20,291 bases of DNA from Thermotogota bacterium (GTDB lineage Bacteria; Thermotogota; Thermotogae; Petrotogales; Kosmotogaceae). Of the stretch, positions 1 through 14,293 are shown in pieces; position 1 is the stretch's first letter, and each line of letters begins with the position of its first letter. The notes beneath the pieces were generated by a model that saw nothing but the letters and a program-made list of their open reading frames with translations, was not told the DNA's origin and made no database searches. The stretch covers positions 1 to 20,291 of the forward strand of contig JAYEJL010000032.1 in the NCBI GenBank assembly GCA_034660555.1, read 5' to 3'. Made by a program: the position numbers and the translations under genes.

Positions 1-1338
1 TGGATCAACAGACCATTTCTTTTCGTTATCTCCTACCATTATGATTTTGCCTTCATCAATTTCGGAGGTACCAACTATTATTTTATTTTCAATATTGAGA
101 GAAGCTGTTACCCTGACATCAAGGCTTTTTTCTAAACTTTCAAGATCACCAACACTTTTTTTTGTAGAGGATTCACCAATAACTTTCTCGACTTCTACCT
201 TTTTCTCGATAATCACCGGTTTAGTTTTATCTTCAACTTTGAATCCTGTTCTTCCTGTTGAGTAAGTTTTACCGTCAGATACAGCACAGGATAATTCATA
301 CGATCCTGTTGAATCCGGTGTTAGAGTCAATGATGATGATGATTTTTTCAATAATTGTCCGTTTAATTTCCATGAATAATTTAATGCATCTCCATCTTTA
401 TCATCTGCCTCAATTATTATTTTTACTTCTTCACCTGGGTATATTACAGGAGGAAGACATGAAATGCTGTTAATTGTTGGTGGAGAATTTTCCCATTCTG
501 GAGATCTGTATTCACCGGTGTATATATTATCTGTAACTGTCTGTACTTTTATAGAGTGCTGTCTATTGTAGTCCATAAATGGTGTTCTGTATTCTACATA
601 GTAAGTCATAAAAAAGGTTTCTTCTAAATATTTGATTGCATTTACCAGTCCGTCAAAAGCGAAAATATTGTATAGAGTGCTTTCTGTTTTAGATGCCAAT
701 TCAATATAATCTTCGTGATTGGGTGCACAGAGTACCATTTCTATTCCCATGCCGTTTAATTCGTTCTTGATTGTATTGACCGAAAGAGATGTGTTTGAAC
801 TGTTTGAGCTTTGATGAGGAGGGGCATTTGTGATCAAACAAATGATTTTTCTGGCTCTGCTGTCAAAATCTAAATTTAATGCCTCGTGTATTGCCTGTAG
901 TGAATTTTCATTGTCATCTCCTCCCCCAAAGGGTATGATGCTTCCTATCCAATCCAAAAAAATGCCAGAATCACTGGTAAATCTGTGTAATTTATTTATG
1001 TGATCAGTAAAAGTAATCATGGCATAACGTACATTGATGTTACGCTTAGCGAATGTTTCTGTAAGCTCACTAGATAGTTTGTTGAGTTGATTAATGTAAT
1101 CTCTCATACTTCCAGATTGATCGATAAGGAAAACCAGATCAAGATCTGAAACAAATCCTTCTGGAGTTTTGGTAAATGAAAAATCAACTGCTTTACCATC
1201 TTCGGTTATTTCACTTATGGTAGCATCTGCAGTAAAATAAAATCTAATCATGGGATAACGGTTTAGATCAATTCCTGTAATTTGTCCAAACAATGATAAA
1301 GAAATAATCAAGAAAACCAGCGTAATTGTTTTTTTCAT
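1..1338 (-). CDS. Secreted vWA-domain protein with Ig/PKD-like domain, 3' end beyond window (>=446 aa); not in ORF track
   Basis: Manual translation from ATG at 1338 is open to position 1: MKKTITLVFLIISLSLFG (signal peptide), DLVFLIDQSGSM (MIDAS DxSxS at 1108-1122), GGGDDNENSLQAI, ICLITNAPPH, then NSPPTINSI...ADDKDGDALNYSWKLNG...CAVSDG (Ig/PKD-like). SD-like GGTGGTGA overlaps the upstream gene's stop; 5-nt gap. Confidence 0.92.
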   Translation of the reverse strand, partial: MKKTITLVFLIISLSLFGQITGIDLNRYPMIRFYFTADATISEITEDGKAVDFSFTKTPEGFVSDLDLVFLIDQSGSMRDYINQLNKLSSELTETFAKRNINVRYAMITFTDHINKLHRFTSDSGIFLDWIGSIIPFGGGDDNENSLQAIHEALNLDFDSRARKIICLITNAPPHQSSNSSNTSLSVNTIKNELNGMGIEMVLCAPNHEDYIELASKTESTLYNIFAFDGLVNAIKYLEETFFMTYYVEYRTPFMDYNRQHSIKVQTVTDNIYTGEYRSPEWENSPPTINSISCLPPVIYPGEEVKIIIEADDKDGDALNYSWKLNGQLLKKSSSSLTLTPDSTGSYELSCAVSDGKTYSTGRTGFKVEDKTKPVIIEKKVEVEKVIGESSTKKSVGDLESLEKSLDVRVTASLNIENKIIVGTSEIDEGKIIMVGDNEKKWSVDP

Positions 1339-1343
1339 GAGAT

Positions 1344-4300
1344 TCACCACCTGAGTGTTTTCTCAGAAATGTTTCCTGCAATATCCTGAGCTATTATATG
1401 GATTTCATTTTTGTCCTTTCTAAATGTTCGTTCAATTTCAAATTCCTTTTCCCCGTCTGCATCAATTTTATAGGAATCAATCTTTATCCAGTCCAGTTTA
1501 TGATTATCAGAGACCTTTAGAATCAATTTGACTTTATCTTCTAATGCTGTAATTTCCGAAGAAATTTTCGGTGAAGTAGTGTCTACATAAATATTGTAAA
1601 CCAGGTCACTGGTAAGACCATAAATATCAACTGCTTTTATATAGAGCAACGATTCACCCTCAGGAAAATATCTCTTTTCATTAAATGTTGTGTCCTTTTT
1701 TCCATATAATCTGTATTCCTGCTCTGTTACTCCCCAGAAATCTGTATTTGTGATAACTCTGTCCAATCCCTTGTTATCTGAAGCAGATATTGTGTAGTCA
1801 ATAATATTCTCATTTGAAAGTAGTTCTTCACTTAAATCTGCAGTTATTTGAGGGATTTCTCTGTCAGGTAATTTAAGTGAAACATAGCCAGCATCATACC
1901 AGTCGATACCATCACTAAACCAGTCACTATTATATGGATCAAAATAGGTTAGTGTTGCTGTTTTCTCAAAAGAGATTCCATAACCTTCAACGTCGAGATT
2001 GAAACCAACGGGTTCCCCATATTGTTTTGAATCAAAATAGTGTACTTTAATCTCATACTTCCCATCGGGCGGTATGTAATCTTCTCCATATCGCAATATA
2101 TATTCTTCTACCTTATGGAGTTTGTCCTGATAAATACGTTCATCGGTTGTCAGGTAGCCACCCTCTCTACTGCTCCTGTTTTTATAGCTAACAATGGCTC
2201 CACCGGGTTCTCTTACAAATAAATCAAGATCTGCGCCCATAGCTGACCACGAGAGTGTGACTTTTAAGGCTGGTTGACCTGTAATATAATTAACTTCTAA
2301 TGAAATACCACCAATACCTTTATTTGATTTCACAGTAATCGTTATTCTGTTACTACCTTTTTCTAATATGATGTTCTGGTTGAATCTGTTTTCCTTTACA
2401 GGTAATGAGTACGGGGTATCCCCAACCATAATTTCAGCCACACCATTTTCGATCTCTGGCCCTTCTATTTCTCCGCTTAATGTTATTCTTTCTGTTCCAA
2501 CAGTATTCTCAAATTCTTTGTTAAGATTTATTTTAAGCCATTTAAGAGTTCTTTCGGTTTTCCTGCCAGCTATATCAATGGCTGCCAATTTTATGGGTTC
2601 CAATATTTTATCAACAGATATTGGAATATTCTTTTTCCTTTCTCCGGCCAATTTATAGATTTTATCGCCAAGCTGGAGATATTTTAGTCCGGAATCATCT
2701 GAGAATATTATCTTTACAGCTTCTGCAAATTTTCCATCAAATATCAATTCTGGCTCAATCACTGGTCTCATTTTGTCAACATAAAGGTATCGTGAGAGTT
2801 CACTAACATTTCCTGATCCATCTTCAACCAAAATGGCAATATCCTGAGATTCATTCAAACTAAGTTTGAAGGTTTCTCTTAGATGGTTTGGATTATCGTA
2901 ATCACGTACAATGTCACCAACAGTTATTCTTTTTATACCACTTATGTCTGTTGCAATTACTGTTATTTCTGCTAAATCAGAAACAACTTGACTCTCCAGT
3001 TTTACTTCAACCTCAGGAGGAACATTATCCTGTTCAACTGTAAAAGCTCTTGATGAAGAATTCCCAGCAAGATCAATAGCTTCTACTTTAACAATCTTAC
3101 TTTCATCTTCTTCCAGCTCAATACTTATTGTTTCTTCAAAAGACTTTTTGCTATCAGCATTGTATCTTTTGTCTTGAATTGTAATAAACTGAAGACCTGT
3201 ATCATCGAATGCTTCAATAACCAGTTTTGCTTGATTTTCACCGGTGAAAGAACGTCCTTTGATATTAATTTCGGGTGGGTTAACATCGTAGATCACATAT
3301 ATTTTTTCATTCGTTATGTTGCCTGCAATGTCAAGAGCTGAAAGTGTTAACGCCTTTGACTTTCTGTCAAGTTCATAACTAAGACTATACTTTCCATTAA
3401 TAATTTCATAACTGACTTCATTTCCATCAAGTAATACGTTTTCTACTTCTGTGTCATCAAGTATTTCAGCTTCTATGGTAATTGTGTTAAGAGATGTATA
3501 GAAAAATCTATCCACTTTTATTGTGGGCGAAACTTTATCATAAATAATATCAACAGGAAGTTCAGCAATTTTTGAACCATTAGCATTTACTATACTTAAT
3601 ATCGGTGAATGCTTGCCCTGTAATGGCGAATGTAAGTCATAACCTCTAAAGAAAATAATAAATGGATCAACATAAGTTTTCATTAGATTGCTGTTAAAAA
3701 AGAACGGCGAGAACGTAGAGAGGTTACTTCTTCCTCTAACAGGGATATTTTCCTTTACCTTAGTGATATAGGGTAATTCAACTGGTAACTCAAGAGTCAA
3801 ACTGGCATCAAGAGACGGTTTTTCAAGCAGCAAAAGAAATCTTATATCGGCAGGATCCATTGTTTTAAGCTTTTCAAGTAAATTATCAATAGCTGCAATA
3901 TTGGAGTTAAGAATTTTCGCCTTAACAATGTTAGGATACTCAGTTGTGCTTTCAATAAGATTGTTAGCTTTAGTTGTATTTTCTGTCAAATTCAATGTGT
4001 GGTAATTCCAGTATATTTTAAGCGGTTTAAGGGTCTCATAAGGTTCTATCTTATTATTTATATGTTTTAACAAATCGCTATTTCCCGTATAAAAACCGCC
4101 CAAGAAGATGCTACTTAACAGCAATGGATCATCATTTTCAGTTTCAACTAACCTTTCACAAAATGCTGTTGCCTGTTCATCTTTTCCAGTAGACAGTAGA
4201 GATTCTATGTAGATTCTTGAAGCAAAAGGATCAAGAGTGTTAATGGCGATATCTTCAATGATACCCAGTGCTTCCTCGGGATTTTCTTTTACAGCAAATA

Positions 4301-6413
4301 ATGCGTTTATAATTGACTTTCTACTTTCCTCTTCAAATGATGTTTCTTCAAGTTTTTTATAAGCTTTTGCCATTTGTCCAATGTAATAATAAGATATGAC
4401 TTCATAATAAATATTTACCGGCTTTTTGAGTTCATTGTCAAATCTTTTGCTAATTTCTATGAATTCACTAAGCTTTGTCACTGAACCTTCGATCAGAGCT
4501 GCTCTGAATTGATTTTCCGCAAGTTTTTCCAGCAAATATGGAATAAGTGAGTTTGGATAATTAGCATTCTCTAAATAATTCTTGATGAAGTTTACGGCTT
4601 CAAGATAATCTTTTTTGTTTATTAACTGCTCAATCATTGATTCCAGTGAAAGAACTGTTATGGATTTTCTTTCAAAAAAGTCCACCGCTTGAAGTTCAAT
4701 AAAAAATTCTCCATCTTCTTGAATGTTCAACCTTATTGTCGACTGGTCTTTAAAGAGTTCTTGTTTGCTAAACAGAACATTGTTTTCGCCATCGACAACA
4801 GATAGTTCTAATTCCAATGGTTCAGTCATGGTGGCTCTTGATGTTATTTTTACAGGGAACATCTGTCCGGAAACAACTGAATCAGGTAATGATAATTCAA
4901 GATCGACATAATCAAGGGGTACGAAAAACTTACCTTTTAGTATTCTTTCTGGTGTATCTATCACCATAGTAGGATTTCTGTCGTCAATGTACTCATATCT
5001 TAGAACATAAGAGCTGTTGAACAGTTCAAGAAGCTTCTCGAATGATGTTTTAAGTTCATCAATTGTTGGAGTATTTAAGAAAATACCTCCTGTTGACAAT
5101 GCAAGAGTTCCCAGACTAAACTCATCTATTTCTGTGCCTATTCCTATTGTTAAAATCGGGATACCCTTTTCTCTGGCCAATCTTATGGCATCTGATAGTC
5201 TGCTATTACTACCAAAAGCTGTGTCTGTATAATTTGCATCTACGCCGTCTGTAATAAGTACGAGAAATCTCAGCCCTTCGCGCGAGGAAAGAATTTCTAT
5301 TGCTTCAATAACTGTATCATAAAGTGGGGTTGATCCCTCTGCATTTATTCTATCTATCGCTGCATTTAACTCATCTTTATTGGATGTGAAGTTTTTAAGA
5401 AGTTCAATTTCCGTGCCAAAAGCCATTAATGCTGTTTCGTTGTTTTTGGGAAGCATTTCGATAAATTCTTTGGTGGCATTTTTTGCCTGTTCCATAACGG
5501 GTATCATACTACCACTTCTATCGAGAGCAATCATAAAATTCAAATTCATTTCTCTGTAGATCTGTCTAACACTTTCAGGAGTTGTTGGGTTATCATTCTG
5601 CAGGATGGTGAAGGTACTTTTATCTATTTCTTCAAGAGAAAGAGGTAATCCTTCTTCATCAATTGGTCTAAAGATCAATGAAATTAAAGGAAACTGTGTG
5701 ATGTCAATACTATAAAACTCAATATTCCCGAGTGTTTCTGAATATATTTTCTTGACCAGTTTATAACTAAAATCACCAATCGTGCTGTCTAAAACTGGTA
5801 AAAAACCTTCAACAAATTCCTGTCTGGTAGCTTTTACACTAAATTTAGTTTTAGTATTAAAAAAGCTTTCTTCGATATTTTCTGCAGTATATCCCTTTAT
5901 TTGTAAATCGAAGTCATGTCCTGAAGGTGAAGCTTCAGAAGCGGTCAAGAATACATCAATATAGTAATTAAAATCTTCAAGTTTATTTTTGTCAAGAGAT
6001 TCTCCATTTACAACCTTTGATTCTAATCCAAAACTATCAATTGTTTCTTTTAAAGCAATTTCAGTGTTCTCAAAAAACCAGTTTTCCGTTTCAGAAGCTT
6101 CAACAGTAATCCCAAATATTATATTTCCAATACTTGAAGCGAGATCTTTCCTCACCCGAAGTATAGCTCTGATGTCTTTTTCTACATTGTCTTCTATAAA
6201 AGCATATGTTTCAAAGGGTTCAAATCCTTTTAACTGAACTGCTACCCTGTGGAACCCGGGAACAACATTGTAACTAAAAGGTGTATATCCCAGTCTATTG
6301 CCATCTATAAAAACCACAGCGTTTGTTGGATTACTTCCGACGTTGATTGATCCATATGAAAAAATGGTTGCTGTAACAGCTATAAAGATAAGCATAAAAA
6401 ACAACTTCCGCAT
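1344..6413 (-). CDS. Large secreted multidomain protein (1689 aa): PEGA, vWA, helical/TPR-like region, Ig-like repeats, YfaP/DUF2135-like domain
   Basis: Start moved to ATG 6413 (SD AAAGGGGGAG; signal peptide MRKLFF...TIFS). PEGA-like GSINVGSNPTNAVVFIDG..GYTP; intact MIDAS LDRSGSM / TPLYD / ITDG; six D..P.I ... D.AGN Ig-like repeats; KVTLSWSAMGADLDLFVREPGG motif. Confidence 0.9.
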   Translation of the reverse strand: MRKLFFMLIFIAVTATIFSYGSINVGSNPTNAVVFIDGNRLGYTPFSYNVVPGFHRVAVQLKGFEPFETYAFIEDNVEKDIRAILRVRKDLASSIGNIIFGITVEASETENWFFENTEIALKETIDSFGLESKVVNGESLDKNKLEDFNYYIDVFLTASEASPSGHDFDLQIKGYTAENIEESFFNTKTKFSVKATRQEFVEGFLPVLDSTIGDFSYKLVKKIYSETLGNIEFYSIDITQFPLISLIFRPIDEEGLPLSLEEIDKSTFTILQNDNPTTPESVRQIYREMNLNFMIALDRSGSMIPVMEQAKNATKEFIEMLPKNNETALMAFGTEIELLKNFTSNKDELNAAIDRINAEGSTPLYDTVIEAIEILSSREGLRFLVLITDGVDANYTDTAFGSNSRLSDAIRLAREKGIPILTIGIGTEIDEFSLGTLALSTGGIFLNTPTIDELKTSFEKLLELFNSSYVLRYEYIDDRNPTMVIDTPERILKGKFFVPLDYVDLELSLPDSVVSGQMFPVKITSRATMTEPLELELSVVDGENNVLFSKQELFKDQSTIRLNIQEDGEFFIELQAVDFFERKSITVLSLESMIEQLINKKDYLEAVNFIKNYLENANYPNSLIPYLLEKLAENQFRAALIEGSVTKLSEFIEISKRFDNELKKPVNIYYEVISYYYIGQMAKAYKKLEETSFEEESRKSIINALFAVKENPEEALGIIEDIAINTLDPFASRIYIESLLSTGKDEQATAFCERLVETENDDPLLLSSIFLGGFYTGNSDLLKHINNKIEPYETLKPLKIYWNYHTLNLTENTTKANNLIESTTEYPNIVKAKILNSNIAAIDNLLEKLKTMDPADIRFLLLLEKPSLDASLTLELPVELPYITKVKENIPVRGRSNLSTFSPFFFNSNLMKTYVDPFIIFFRGYDLHSPLQGKHSPILSIVNANGSKIAELPVDIIYDKVSPTIKVDRFFYTSLNTITIEAEILDDTEVENVLLDGNEVSYEIINGKYSLSYELDRKSKALTLSALDIAGNITNEKIYVIYDVNPPEINIKGRSFTGENQAKLVIEAFDDTGLQFITIQDKRYNADSKKSFEETISIELEEDESKIVKVEAIDLAGNSSSRAFTVEQDNVPPEVEVKLESQVVSDLAEITVIATDISGIKRITVGDIVRDYDNPNHLRETFKLSLNESQDIAILVEDGSGNVSELSRYLYVDKMRPVIEPELIFDGKFAEAVKIIFSDDSGLKYLQLGDKIYKLAGERKKNIPISVDKILEPIKLAAIDIAGRKTERTLKWLKINLNKEFENTVGTERITLSGEIEGPEIENGVAEIMVGDTPYSLPVKENRFNQNIILEKGSNRITITVKSNKGIGGISLEVNYITGQPALKVTLSWSAMGADLDLFVREPGGAIVSYKNRSSREGGYLTTDERIYQDKLHKVEEYILRYGEDYIPPDGKYEIKVHYFDSKQYGEPVGFNLDVEGYGISFEKTATLTYFDPYNSDWFSDGIDWYDAGYVSLKLPDREIPQITADLSEELLSNENIIDYTISASDNKGLDRVITNTDFWGVTEQEYRLYGKKDTTFNEKRYFPEGESLLYIKAVDIYGLTSDLVYNIYVDTTSPKISSEITALEDKVKLILKVSDNHKLDWIKIDSYKIDADGEKEFEIERTFRKDKNEIHIIAQDIAGNISEKTLRW

Positions 6414-6617
6414 TGGATCTCCCCCTTTAGAATGCGTCTTATGTTTCATTTGACTAAAGAATAATTATTTTACTAATCATGAGCAAAAAACAGAACCCTT
6501 AATTTTTAACCGGAACGTATTCCCTGGTTTTTATACGTTGTTTACACGCAATATGAGTTAAGTTTTTCTTAGTATGTTCCAGGTATTGTTATAATTTAAG
6601 ATTACGGTGCTTCTTAT

Positions 6618-10348: not shown

Positions 10349-11881
10349 ATGAAGAAATTTGTTGTGTTAGTTTTCCTGGCCCTGGTGATGTCCGCTTTTG
10401 CTTTGGCAGTAAGCTATTCGGATGTTCCGGAGGATCACTGGGCATATGATGCGGTTATGAAAACCACTTCTGCTGGATTGTTGAAGGGTTTCCCGGATGA
10501 AACATTCCAGGGAAAAGAGGTAGTATCAAGATATCAGCTAGCAGAAGTACTCAGTAAGACTTTAGATTATGTTGACACAGGCGATCAAAAGGTACAGGAG
10601 GTCGTTTTTGCTCTAACGAAGAAAGTTGCTAGTCTTTCACTTGAAATCTCTGATTCTAAAAAAGCAGTTGCAGATGTTAATAATGATATTGAAGGTTTGA
10701 AGGACAGAGTTGGTACACTTGAGACGGATATGGATGTTGTTTTTGATCAGGTAGATTCAAATGTGTTCAATATTATGGAGATCGAAAATAAGGTATCCGA
10801 TCTAGAAAAAGACATGGGTGGCTTTATAACAGTTGATGATTTTGAATACATGGAAAATGCAATTGACAAAATCAGCAGTGATCTATTCGCCATTAAGATT
10901 TCAAAAGCATCTGCTCAAAGAGTAGATATGCTTGAAGAAAATCTGGCCGATCTTGATGAAAAAATGGCTGAAATTGAAGGAAAAACGGATGCTTTCGTAA
11001 CATCTGAACAAATGTCCCAGAAGATTGATTTCCTTTATAAGAAGATAGGCCTTACAGAAAACAAACTTGATGAAAAGATAGCTGGATTGGAATCTGAGTT
11101 ATCAGGAGTAAAAGAGGGAGTAGTAGGTCCAGCATTTGATCAAATCAACAAAAATGTATCCGATATAACCAGCATGAAAGAAGAAATTGGCATGATAAAT
11201 GCTGATATTGATGAACTCAGTGGTACATACAATACAAAAATCAGCAGTCTTGAAAAATCACTATCAGATTTGCAAATAACAACGAAGTTTATTGGCCAGG
11301 CCGTAGCTAATCTGGGAAATAAGTTCGTAACAAAAGAAGAAATGGATGCTTTTGAGGGCAAATTAGATGTAGTTTATGATCAAATCGATTCTAATATCTT
11401 TGACATCATTGGCCTTGAAGATGAAGTTAAGAACATCAAAGAAAATTATGTAACTGTAGAAGAATTTGAAGCTGCAAAGGCAGAATATGATGAAATGTTC
11501 GAGGTTACTTATGACCAGATTGATTCAAATGTTTTTGATATTTTAGATCTTGAAAGATCAATTGAAGATATCAAAGAGAATTATGTCAGCGCAGAAGATT
11601 TTGAGTATATTGAGAATGTCACAGACAAACTCAGTAGTAATCTTTTTTCTATAAAATTGGCTAAAGCTGACGCGAAAGACGTAAAGAACCTGGAAGAAAA
11701 AGTTAGCACACTTGAAAGTGATGTAAATGAAAAAGTAGAATCCGTTAAAAGTGATAATGAAGAAGCAGTGAAAAAGGTTGACGAAAAAGTCGAAAAAGCC
11801 AGCAAAACAGCTAACAGCTCCTTGTGGATTGGTCTCGCAGGTCTTGCTGTTGGTATCGTTGCGCTGATTCTTGGACTGTAG
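10349..11881 (+). CDS. ompA: Toga anchor protein Omp-alpha: signal peptide, SLH domain, long coiled coil, C-terminal TM
   Basis: YSDVPEDHWAYDAV...GLLKGFPDETFQG...SRYQLA (SLH); ~400 aa of heptad-rich sequence; terminal hydrophobic SLWIGLAGLAVGIVALILGL; synteny with secG-tyrS as known in Thermotogota. The symbol refers to Thermotoga Omp-alpha, not E. coli OmpA. Confidence 0.92.
   Translation: MKKFVVLVFLALVMSAFALAVSYSDVPEDHWAYDAVMKTTSAGLLKGFPDETFQGKEVVSRYQLAEVLSKTLDYVDTGDQKVQEVVFALTKKVASLSLEISDSKKAVADVNNDIEGLKDRVGTLETDMDVVFDQVDSNVFNIMEIENKVSDLEKDMGGFITVDDFEYMENAIDKISSDLFAIKISKASAQRVDMLEENLADLDEKMAEIEGKTDAFVTSEQMSQKIDFLYKKIGLTENKLDEKIAGLESELSGVKEGVVGPAFDQINKNVSDITSMKEEIGMINADIDELSGTYNTKISSLEKSLSDLQITTKFIGQAVANLGNKFVTKEEMDAFEGKLDVVYDQIDSNIFDIIGLEDEVKNIKENYVTVEEFEAAKAEYDEMFEVTYDQIDSNVFDILDLERSIEDIKENYVSAEDFEYIENVTDKLSSNLFSIKLAKADAKDVKNLEEKVSTLESDVNEKVESVKSDNEEAVKKVDEKVEKASKTANSSLWIGLAGLAVGIVALILGL
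10733..11700 (+). repeat. Diverged internal repeats in the ompA stalk
   Basis: DVVFDQVDSNVFNI (from 10733), DVVYDQIDSNIFDI (from 11366), EVTYDQIDSNVFDI (from 11501); copies 1 and 3 continue alike through DFEY.EN..DK.SS.LF.IK..KA.A..V..LEE. Confidence 0.85.
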
Positions 11882-11945: not shown

Positions 11946-12005
11946 TTGAGATAGTACGTAATTAATATTGTTACCACAAAAATCTCTTGAAGGGGGTAAG
12001 TGCAT

Positions 12006-13196
12006 ATGAAAAAGCTTTTGATAGTTTTAATAGTCCTTGTATCAGTAGGTCTATTTGCTACAACTCAGGTAAACCTAAATCCTTGGGTTGAAGGTACAGT
12101 AAAAGGTAGTGTATTGTTTGACAAAGATGGGAAACATACTGCACTGCAGACATGGGATCTAGATTTCGGTTGGGGTTTTAGCGTACCACATGATAATTTG
12201 AGTATTTCAGTAAGCCTGGATGAACCACTTGATGACCTTTCTATTGGTCAACTTGCTATTGAGAATGATAATCTAGGTTTAACATGGTTTTCTAGTATGG
12301 CGTTATCAGGGAAGTATTCTCTTAAATGGTTCAACTACCTCGATGATGGATTATGGAATCATTTAATGCGCATGAACCTCAAACAGATTGGTTTGCAGAT
12401 TGCAACACAAGATGGTACAGACGACAAAGTTGCAGTAAAAGCTAATATTCTTGATATGGTTGATCTTAGGGCACAGGCAAAGTTCAATGTTTACACATTT
12501 GTTTCTGCTGCAGGTGAGCTCTACGTTACTCCAATTGAAAACCTTAATCTCAAAGCAGGTTATGACACAGATAACAGATATTTCGCGGGCGCTGACTACA
12601 CAATGACAGTAGCTGATCTTGTTACGCTCAATCCTTATGTCTTCTATTCTACTGATTGGGGTCAGTTTGCAGGATTAAGAGCTTCCCTGACACAGGGTAT
12701 TTTTGGTGTTGATGCTGGTTATGAATATGACATAGCTGGTACCAGTCATTTCATTGATGGCAAACTTTCTGTTGATCATGATATCGCTTCTGCCTGGGTA
12801 TATGGAGACGCAACATTCCCAGCAAATGATTACACAGCTCAGGTACATGCAAGTACTTCACAAACATTTGGTCCTCTAACTGTATCAGTTGATGTCGGAT
12901 CAGGTGATTATAATAATTGGTTTGCTTATCCACCAACTTACGGTAACTTAGTTGATGACTTTAAAGATTTGAGTGCATATGCAAAATTGTCAGTAACACC
13001 AGAATTAGGTCTTGGCGTAATTTCAGATCCTGCACTCACATTAGATGGTGGTTACTACTTGCTTGATGGTTCTTCCTCAGCATCAATAAATTTAGCTACA
13101 AAACTGTATGATCTCTTAAATATCAGTGCAGGTATCTCTGAACTATTTGATATTTCAACCTGGTATGTAGAATTCTTCTATATAATTACATTTTAA
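12006..13196 (+). CDS. ompB: Toga beta-barrel outer-envelope protein, Omp-beta/porin candidate (396 aa)
   Basis: ATG 12006 after G-rich SD; signal peptide MKKLLIV...GLFA; alternating amphipathic strands rich in Y/F/W/G; C-terminal WYVEFFYIITF ending in Phe; directly downstream of ompA. Confidence 0.8.
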   Translation: MKKLLIVLIVLVSVGLFATTQVNLNPWVEGTVKGSVLFDKDGKHTALQTWDLDFGWGFSVPHDNLSISVSLDEPLDDLSIGQLAIENDNLGLTWFSSMALSGKYSLKWFNYLDDGLWNHLMRMNLKQIGLQIATQDGTDDKVAVKANILDMVDLRAQAKFNVYTFVSAAGELYVTPIENLNLKAGYDTDNRYFAGADYTMTVADLVTLNPYVFYSTDWGQFAGLRASLTQGIFGVDAGYEYDIAGTSHFIDGKLSVDHDIASAWVYGDATFPANDYTAQVHASTSQTFGPLTVSVDVGSGDYNNWFAYPPTYGNLVDDFKDLSAYAKLSVTPELGLGVISDPALTLDGGYYLLDGSSSASINLATKLYDLLNISAGISELFDISTWYVEFFYIITF

Positions 13197-13219: not shown

Positions 13220-13250
13220 GACCCCGGCCATGCGCCGGGGTTTTGTTTTG
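13220..13250 (+). terminator. Intrinsic terminator of ompB
   Basis: GACCCCGGC-catgc-GCCGGGGTT followed by TTGTTTTG. Confidence 0.92.
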
Positions 13251-13602: not shown

Positions 13603-13653
13603 AAAGTTCAAAAGATAAAACAAGGCTGTCGAGAAAAATGTGAAATGATAACG

Positions 13654-13743
13654 AAAAAATGACCACCCCGAGCAATAACCCTGATAAGCTTTAAGTATCC
13701 ACAAAAAGAAAGCGGGGTATAAAAGGAGATGCTCAGGATGGTC
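13654..13743 (-). ncRNA. Candidate ~90-nt structured small RNA (family unrecognised)
   Basis: Minus strand GACCAUCCUGAGCA pairs with UGCUCGGGGUGGUC (14 contiguous bp, two G-U); inner helices AUACCCC/GGGUUAU and GCUUU/AAAGC; TATACT ends 7 nt before the first G; AUUUUUU follows the stem. Confidence 0.5.
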
Positions 13744-13836
13744 GACAAAGAGTATATACGAAAAACAACAATCAATTATCGGGATTCATTTATACGTTTG
13801 GTGGTCCTAATTTATTCGGCTTTGGGTTTAGTATAA
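13738..13836 (+). CDS. Putative 32-aa peptide MVDKEYIRKTTINYRDSFIRLVVLIYSALGLV
   Basis: AAAAGGAG (13721-13728) 9 nt before ATG 13738; stop TAA 13834-13836; hydrophobic C-terminus. Below the ORF-track cutoff; no homology evidence. Confidence 0.35.
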   Translation: MVDKEYIRKTTINYRDSFIRLVVLIYSALGLV

Positions 13837-13885
13837 TTATATTGGAAGACATTCGACTCTGGTGATTTATTTGGAGGTAGATTGT

Positions 13886-14293
13886 ATGAAGATGATTCTT
13901 ATAATAATGACTGACATTCTTCTGTTAGCAGCTGTAGCGTTGCTGGTAGTGTCAGCTGGTAGCGGTTTCTTGGGGAATCTGTTTGAGAAAAACCTTGAGT
14001 TTTCGGAGATTTCTATCTGGTTTTCTGTTAATTTGTTTTTATTAGCCATTTCAATGCAGATTTTTTTGATTGTTTCTTTTAAGAAGATAGCAAAGGCTGC
14101 TCTAATTTTTCTGAGTTCATCAGCTCTTGTAATATATGTATATGGAGTTTATCAAAAAGGACTTGGATGGCTCACACGTCCTTTATACAACCTCTTTGAT
14201 ATTCAGGATATACCCTCTTTGCCAGGAATTCTTATGCTTCTCTTTTTATGTTTGGTGCTTGCGTTATCAGTAGTATTAAGCACAAAAAAATAA
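13886..14293 (+). CDS. Hypothetical membrane protein, ~4 TM helices (135 aa)
   Basis: ATG 13886 after SD GGAGGT (13873-13878); four hydrophobic segments. Confidence 0.82.
   Translation: MKMILIIMTDILLLAAVALLVVSAGSGFLGNLFEKNLEFSEISIWFSVNLFLLAISMQIFLIVSFKKIAKAALIFLSSSALVIYVYGVYQKGLGWLTRPLYNLFDIQDIPSLPGILMLLFLCLVLALSVVLSTKK

Follow-up and report, generated by a model that had tools for sequence, protein, structure and literature searches.

Organization of the locus

We analyzed a 20,291-nt stretch of a Thermotogota genome (hereafter the window), in which a hairpin occupies the spacer between two plus-strand genes. The gene to its left (12000-13196) encodes a 398-aa protein with a signal-like start and a C-terminal Phe; the protein looks by eye like an outer-membrane barrel and had no Pfam or NCBIfam match, and a terminator-like hairpin (13220-13242) follows the gene. 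The gene to its right (13862-14293) encodes a small hydrophobic protein, which likewise had no match in Pfam or NCBIfam, and is kept in same-genus genomes together with an upstream TATAAT. Elsewhere in the window, the regions 1-6449 on the minus strand and 10349-11881 on the plus strand encode two large proteins with what we take by eye to be vWA-like DxSGS motifs, and a long coiled-coil protein that begins with what looks like an S-layer homology domain.

The hairpin had originally been predicted to be a minus-strand small RNA, and a check of the sequence found every element of that description in place. TATACT (13756-13751) is followed by 7 nt and then by a 14-bp closing stem (13743-13730 paired with 13674-13661), which is continuous on the minus strand if two G-U pairs are counted; an A-U6 stretch comes after the stem and ends at 13654. 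The 90-nt minus-strand stretch folded with -31.8 kcal/mol (z -4.83) and the plus strand, on which two C-A mismatches break the closing stem, with -24.1 kcal/mol (z -3.80). Since none of 200 shuffles equaled either value, the hairpin is better than chance on both strands. Inside the closing stem, the pairs originally drawn were supported in part, the centroid structure keeping two short inner helices and no more. Rfam offered no credible family: the window had five matches with E-values of 1.4-4, all far under their gathering scores, and the sole match overlapping the hairpin was bxd_4 (24.3 bits against 40, E 1.5). The caution about the -35 was borne out, as neither the sequence nor promoter scoring revealed one at this site in the window, and a simple promoter scan left the site unlisted because it requires a -35.

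The hairpin is the left end of a truncated IS21-family element

Although the parts were all present, the proposed stand-alone host gene was not what they belonged to: the sequence consists of the leader and the first codons of an IS21 transposase gene, and the hairpin is what remains of the left end of an IS21-family element that breaks off after codon 9 of istA. The genome holds two further copies: contig C14 ends with one (90% over 156 nt) and contig C115 starts with the other (88% over 124 nt). The hairpin is thereby a repeat with three copies in its own genome (E <= 2.3e-39), an outcome that had been named beforehand as one that would refute the original prediction. Among 40 relatives there were two strong matches, in genomes G001 and G016. 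In C14 and in G001 (contig C164) the hairpin directly overlaps the beginning of a 473-codon frame, and the C14 frame matched the NCBIfam IS21 transposase model NF033546 with 271.8 bits against a cut-off of 160. A 257-codon open frame with a Walker A-type motif (GKPGTGKT) follows istA in the C14 copy and was read as IstB by this motif; in five plasmid relatives istB is annotated downstream of istA.

The intact-looking element (G000:C14, 21417-23788, minus strand) is 2372 nt long, comprises istA and the ATPase frame, and begins at the contig end. It starts with TGTAAACG and ends with TTCACA, which gives it TG...CA ends, and it has matching repeats at both ends. A further copy is represented by its left end at a contig edge (G000:C115, 1-127). 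IS21-family elements such as IS5376 share the downstream ATPase frame, the TG...CA ends and the two repeats per end, and the available parts of two papers describe these repeats in IS21 as L1/L2 and R1/R2 (PMC10122671, PMC11208146).

The remnant (13607-13765, plus strand) gave a gapless alignment with the initial 159 nt of the intact copy, in which 17 positions differ. Its outer end (13607-13646, the L1 region) is decayed and has lost the terminal TG (TTCAAAAG against TGTAAACG). The inner terminal repeat (13647-13668, plus strand), identified by alignment and by an inverted-repeat search, was read as L2, a putative transposase-binding repeat; in the intact copy this 22-mer was in the first-listed inverted pair and is 86% complementary to the repeat at the other end. 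The A-run of this repeat (13654-13659) is the stretch earlier taken for a U-tail, which exists as A-U6 and is equally part of the terminal repeat, and its GACCA core makes up one arm of the closing stem. Two further features belong to istA: a Shine-Dalgarno sequence AAGGAG (13723-13728, plus strand), found at the same place upstream of the intact gene, and codons 1-9 (MVDKEYIRK, 13738-13764, plus strand), from which the frame continues into unrelated sequence up to a stop at 13836. The unpaired anti-Shine-Dalgarno tract noted originally is real and is the cis complement of this Shine-Dalgarno sequence. TATACT (13751-13756, minus strand) is the reverse complement of sequence within istA codons 5-7.

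A type I toxin-antitoxin pair was also considered, with the plus-strand frame 13729/13738-13836 (32-35 codons) as the toxin and the hairpin RNA as the antitoxin. The small frame does have a Shine-Dalgarno sequence and a hydrophobic C-terminus and does overlap the hairpin on the opposite strand, but it consists of nine istA codons fused by chance to downstream sequence; the frame of every intact copy continues as transposase, and the fusion was not found at the site in same-genus genomes. We rejected this candidate and give it next to no probability.

The genes flanking the insert are kept in four same-genus genomes (G001-G004), and a search of the matching intergenic site in these four did not find the remnant; G003 alone has both flanks and the whole spacer on one contig, and the contigs of G001, G002 and G004 span the spacer in part. 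IS5376 makes a target-site duplication of 5 bp (PMC10122671); around the remnant none was visible by eye. Past the break, 13774-13789 resembles by eye the last bases of the right end of the element (10 of 14 letters). This likeness would make the remnant an internally deleted element, and similarity to the G001 host sequence starts at about the same place.

A minus-strand covariance model gave three hits in the own genome with E <= 2.1e-5 and two with E of about 0.5. In 101 genomes of the class it produced 25 hits, of which 24 coincided with left ends of IS21 type or with remnants of these; the remaining one was weak (E 0.005) and lay elsewhere. An independent host sRNA gene is not supported, because the insert was not found at the same-genus site and because 24 of the 25 hits were of IS21 type. 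What looks like an orphan sRNA in the window was left behind by a mobile element.

Relatives share the leader layout and a predicted istA promoter

We gathered IstA relatives with their DNA from the phylum, from metagenomes, from viral contigs and from plasmids. Scanning with a single protein gave one locus in the genome collection and one partial relative in the phage collection. The main set comprised 23 left ends: 19 intact or partial elements (IstA identity 47-97%), two plasmid elements (~40%), the window and the G016 remnant. L048, L057, L059 and L063 were left out as duplicates or as too short, and L058 because its gene start is missing. All 23 share a plus-strand layout of terminal repeats, a TAnnnT, inner stems, G-rich Shine-Dalgarno tracts and two starts. 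The two in-frame start codons are conserved nine bases apart, the first being ATG, GTG or TTG, and each has a possible Shine-Dalgarno sequence. IS21 itself makes a shortened cointegrase from a second start.

The TAnnnT lies 23-27 nt past the repeat core in 23 of the 23 relatives and is preceded by TGn in 17 of them; its T, A and final T are invariant alignment columns. This conservation marks TGA-TAAGCT (13682-13690, plus strand) as the extended -10 of a predicted istA promoter with a start near 13697. The IS21 promoter described in the available text of two papers is a weak one whose -10 comes from the left end and whose -35 comes from the right end, and it is masked by IstA (PMC10122671, PMC11208146). 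The outer repeats of L050, L051, L053-L056, L060 and L126 often have TGCTAA.., with a TAnnnT just inside the terminus, and this TAnnnT is a candidate -10 for such an end-to-end junction promoter.

A conserved promoter motif lies antisense to istA codons 5-8

We assessed codon use at the antisense site in 18 relatives less than 75% identical to each other. The minus-strand motif TGnTAnnnT was present at istA codons 5-8 in 11 of the 18, where the codon usage of the individual genes predicted 0.87; elsewhere in the gene, on whichever strand, the best column reached 3. Tyr6 was TAT in 15 of 16 genes and Glu5 was GAG in 15 of 18, which ranked them second and fourth of 72 conserved two-fold columns; 10 of the 11 other Glu columns preferred GAA. 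Similarly, Ile7 was ATC (11/15) and Arg8 was AGR (13/17), each the highest column of its own kind. The antisense motif was kept while codons 5-6 encoded EY, NY, HH, NS, EL, EF or HR.

A census of 85 distinct gene starts, drawn from the 92 usable among 121 loci with an IstA hit, delimited the motif further. Of 32 starts with the double-start layout, 23 had TAnnnT at the antisense site, 18 of these with TG. Among the other 53 starts none had TAnnnT at this site, and two had the extended motif at a shifted place. Since the motif was absent at the site in these 53, the predicted antisense promoter is a feature of one subgroup and not of all IS21 elements. Extended -10 promoters are reported to be the main promoter class in Thermotoga maritima, where this element has the highest information for 63% of transcription units (PMC3636130).

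The lineage of the window is without the TG. Its intact copy has TTAACA-16-TATACT, with the -35 near codons 12-14, and L046, a 73% relative, has TTGACA-16-TATACT; in each gene this is the best minus-strand site. The window copy has no -35 because the truncation removed the TTAACA of the intact copy. In most relatives the antisense -35 is poor, and the combined -35/-10 score per element gave P values of 0.045 to 1.0 against a synonymous null, with 1 of 21 under 0.05; the significance comes from the fixed-site motif test only, the per-element promoter score being mostly not significant.

The same codons could be read in terms of a sense structure alone. The hairpin would then serve to hide the istA Shine-Dalgarno tracts and starts in read-through transcripts, the minus strand would yield no RNA, and the -10 would have arisen incidentally from codon use together with a short sense hairpin. 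GAG-TAT could indeed be kept by a short hairpin with the pre-ATG spacer, but this reading leaves unexplained both the TG extension arising from synonymous ATC and AGR codons and the retention of TAnnnT through amino-acid changes. The possible short sense hairpin would pair 13729-13734 (the spacer after the first ATG) with 13750-13755 (codons 5-6). Spacer C/T and the third base of the Glu codon never formed a C-A pair among the rows of the aligned relatives.

The closing stem covaries across lineages

The closing stem P1 pairs an arm overlapping the repeat core and its 3' flank (13661-13674) with an arm over both in-frame start codons (13729 and 13738), the latter arm (13730-13743) being supported by folding and by the alignment. 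Changes on both sides were seen in four of nine P1 pairs. The whole consensus structure beat 500 of 500 shuffles on paired cells and on the covariation score, a comparison that related sequences can inflate. We then compared pairing within and between elements in 16 lineages. The 5' arm paired with its own start region at a mean of -22.0 kcal/mol and with those of others at -13.8 kcal/mol on the minus strand, and at -16.9 against -10.3 kcal/mol on the plus strand; on neither strand were any of 100000 permutations as good. Distant elements have the repeat cores GACCA, TACCA, GAGCCA, GATCAT, AGCCAT, GTCCA and GAACCA, and istA codons 1-3 co-vary with them and stay complementary. RNAalifold on a MAFFT alignment recovered the closing stem alone, with a consensus energy of -9.64 on the minus and -0.54 on the plus strand; since the inner stems were misaligned in that alignment, they were judged per sequence. 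We take the structure to be under selection.

Symmetry at the level of DNA could produce the same pattern if the start-codon arm were an inverted transposase-binding operator and the stem its by-product. The arm does mirror the repeat core and changes with it across lineages, and binding of IstA has been proposed to mask promoters at IS21 ends, according to the available part of the source (PMC10122671). The complementarity nevertheless reaches past the inner repeat (L2) into its 3' flank, a stretch not shared by the other repeats, and for this reason an RNA stem accounts for it better than a DNA-binding site. Moreover, the start region has no upstream half of the repeat, and the inner stems covary and use G-U pairs. 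We consider an operator highly improbable.

Predicted promoter, rod and transcript ends coincide

The rod was examined in 30 elements with the double-start layout, picked by eye, 22 with the antisense -10 and 8 without it. In 22 of the 22 elements with the -10, the rod starts within 3 nt of the start that this -10 predicts, and the outer pair spans more than 75% of the RNA; a sense structure alone does not explain this coincidence. All 22 had rod z-scores of -3.1 or below and all 8 others of -3.0 or above (medians -5.4 and -1.4), with the reservation that the elements are not independent. The 8 represent some four or five groups at most guess, judged for part of them from a tree, and the p-value of the comparison is therefore overstated. 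What the original prediction said of the strand, the -10, a start near 13743 and a ~90-nt rod agrees with this conserved antisense unit of intact elements, and these features do not make up a host gene. For the window, the fold (z -4.83) and the conserved rod in relatives predict a rod-shaped antisense RNA of about 90 nt (13654-13744, minus strand).

In the predicted folds, the expected 5' end of the mRNA maps to the apical loop of the antisense RNA or to its immediate neighborhood. The mean unpaired probability opposite the first 8 nt of the mRNA exceeded the overall mean of the RNA in 21 of 22 elements; in the exception, L136, the script probably picked the sense -10 at a wrong place. The predicted overlap of mRNA and antisense RNA is 40-51 nt, apart from an outlier of 62 nt that probably has a mis-picked sense -10. 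In the window the overlap is 48 nt (13697-13744) and covers the Shine-Dalgarno tracts and both ATGs. A U-run of at least 5 U was present in 16 of the 22 elements with the -10 (L025 has 2 U), and one of at least 4 U in all 8 without it. Because the U-run belongs to the terminal repeat, termination there is plausible at best.

Our search for RNA found one run, with 6% of the words, which holds an unstranded 231-nt metatranscriptome contig from an intact copy. It covers the equivalent of 13647-13765, starting at 13647 and running into istA, and neither its strand nor its ends can be read. The contig fits overlapping sense and antisense RNAs, and it fits read-through RNA or DNA equally well; we therefore do not use it as evidence.

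Strand evidence

The strand evidence is split. In 25 of 32 elements the minus strand has the stronger closing stem, but most of this preference comes from a single C-A/G-U position, which the repeat core and the ATG hold fixed, and the other positions of the stem form wobble pairs on both strands. Because one mismatch is fixed in this way, we do not treat the strand preference of the closing stem as independent evidence. The inner stems P2/P3 (13679-13717, plus strand, CCCTG..GCGGGG) cover a G-rich Shine-Dalgarno-like tract. In 19 of 23 relatives, folding of the inner domain favors the plus strand, with 42 G-U pairs against 15. In 22 of 23, the start region is costlier to open in the read-through transcript (mean 12.8 kcal/mol) than in the transcript from the element's own promoter (mean 7.1 kcal/mol).

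These preferences of the inner stems and the opening energies speak for a structure that acts in the sense strand only. The folding of the plus strand by itself (z -3.8) points the same way, as do the elements that have no -10, whose rods are weak whichever strand is folded (median z -1.5 for plus). Davis, Simons and Kleckner reportedly described such read-through shielding in Tn10 in 1985. It is also known for IS200, according to the available part of the source (PMC4513863). Weighed against the codon pattern and the placement of the rod, we think it unlikely that the sense structure is the whole explanation; shielding of the start region in read-through transcripts likely coexists with an antisense RNA.

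A model for antisense control of istAB

The IS21 identity, the two conserved promoter motifs, the covarying stems and the geometry described above form the base from which we propose how transcription, termination, pairing and repression would proceed. Intact elements of the subgroup would have two facing housekeeping-type promoters. The leader promoter would start the istAB mRNA near 13697, and the promoter in istA codons 5-8 would start an antisense RNA of about 90 nt near 13744, which would fold into a rod and probably end at the U-run that the inner terminal repeat encodes. The free 5' end of the mRNA is complementary to the apical loop of the predicted antisense RNA, and pairing would start there and spread over about 48 nt, across the Shine-Dalgarno tracts and both start codons. 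Translation of the transposase would thus be blocked, as by RNA-OUT in IS10. In sense transcripts entering from outside, the same inverted repeats would fold and hide the start region. We regard as probable, for the intact element, an arrangement of facing promoters in which the antisense RNA first contacts the 5' end of the mRNA through its loop and then covers the Shine-Dalgarno tracts and starts. Somewhat more tentatively, we favor the wider view that a subgroup of IS21 (in Bacillota plasmids, the phylum of the window and metagenomes) carries an RNA-OUT-like gene, with its promoter in the first transposase codons and its closing stem made from the transposase-binding repeat, and that truncated left ends could persist as stand-alone silencers of intact copies; this last part is much less likely than the part on the subgroup.

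IS10 belongs to the IS4 family; IS200 uses another kind of transposase and lacks terminal inverted repeats. The IS21 left end differs from IS10 in that its closing stem uses the inner terminal repeat and its target is the istAB operon. According to the available parts of the sources, antisense control is documented for IS10, IS30 and IS200, with ISPpu9 as an activating case (PMC8450116, PMC9330008). In IS10/Tn10 the cis-encoded antisense RNA-OUT pairs with RNA-IN, the mRNA 5' end first meeting the terminal loop (PMC4513863); here too a cis antisense RNA would lie opposite the transposase start, and the meeting of mRNA 5' end and loop is predicted from the geometry. The paired region is 35 bp in IS10, where it was experimentally shown, and a predicted 40-51 nt here. 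The art200 RNA of IS200 matches the predicted RNA closely in length, placement and dual RNA control, as far as the available text describes it (PMC4513863). Asr9 of ISPpu9 (IS110 family) is likewise an antisense sRNA complementary to a structured transposase 5' UTR, but it is about 180 nt long and activates translation by opening that structure, whereas the RNA predicted here would cover the Shine-Dalgarno sequence and start codons (PMC8450116); for that reason repression is the expected sign.

The available text of two papers on IS21 control mentions no internal sense promoter, antisense promoter or leader RNA structure (PMC10122671, PMC11208146). A literature search by title and start of abstract found no report of an IS21 antisense RNA; older papers on IS21 regulation lay outside this search, and an earlier description is possible. 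We thus describe a known kind of control in a family for which we found no description, seen in a broken copy. IS21 elements occur widely and carry resistance genes or switch them on (PMC9330008, PMC10122671). If the proposal is true, the antisense RNA adds IS10-type copy-number control to the IS21 family, the DNA-level constraint on the first transposase codons is explained, and the repeat, the start codons and the antisense RNA must evolve together.

State of the window copy

The window copy has lost the terminal TG, the antisense -35 and the rest of istAB and, judged from what is left, cannot move. Because both the TG extension and the -35 are missing, it is probably weak or silent as an antisense promoter, and we consider meaningful antisense expression from it doubtful. 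Relative to the intact copy, its specific letters include T at 13676 and A at 13684. The latter breaks one P2/P3 pair; both the intact copy and the RNA contig have C at this position.

The host might have retained the remnant as an antisense gene in its own right, which would repress intact copies in trans. Its differences from the intact copy are concentrated in the outer end (11 in the 47 nt of 13607-13653, against 6 in the 112 nt of the RNA unit; Fisher p 0.0016), and it breaks 9 nt past the -10. Other remnants also break in the first 5-12 codons. Yet the outer end varies between two intact copies as well, one of the window differences breaks an inner pair, and the G016 remnant has mismatches within its closing stem. 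The missing -35 and TG extension, the failure to find the remnant at the site in the four same-genus genomes, and the match of the RNA contig to an intact copy and not to the window copy argue further against such a silencer, which we judge improbable.

Five other left-end remnants were noted: L145 (G044:C51), L146 (G051:C73), L152 (G028:C23), L161 (G044:C64) and L010 (G016:C1). Like the window copy, they break or stop within about the first 3-15 istA codons. These early breaks may reflect a deletion hot spot or retention of the leader.
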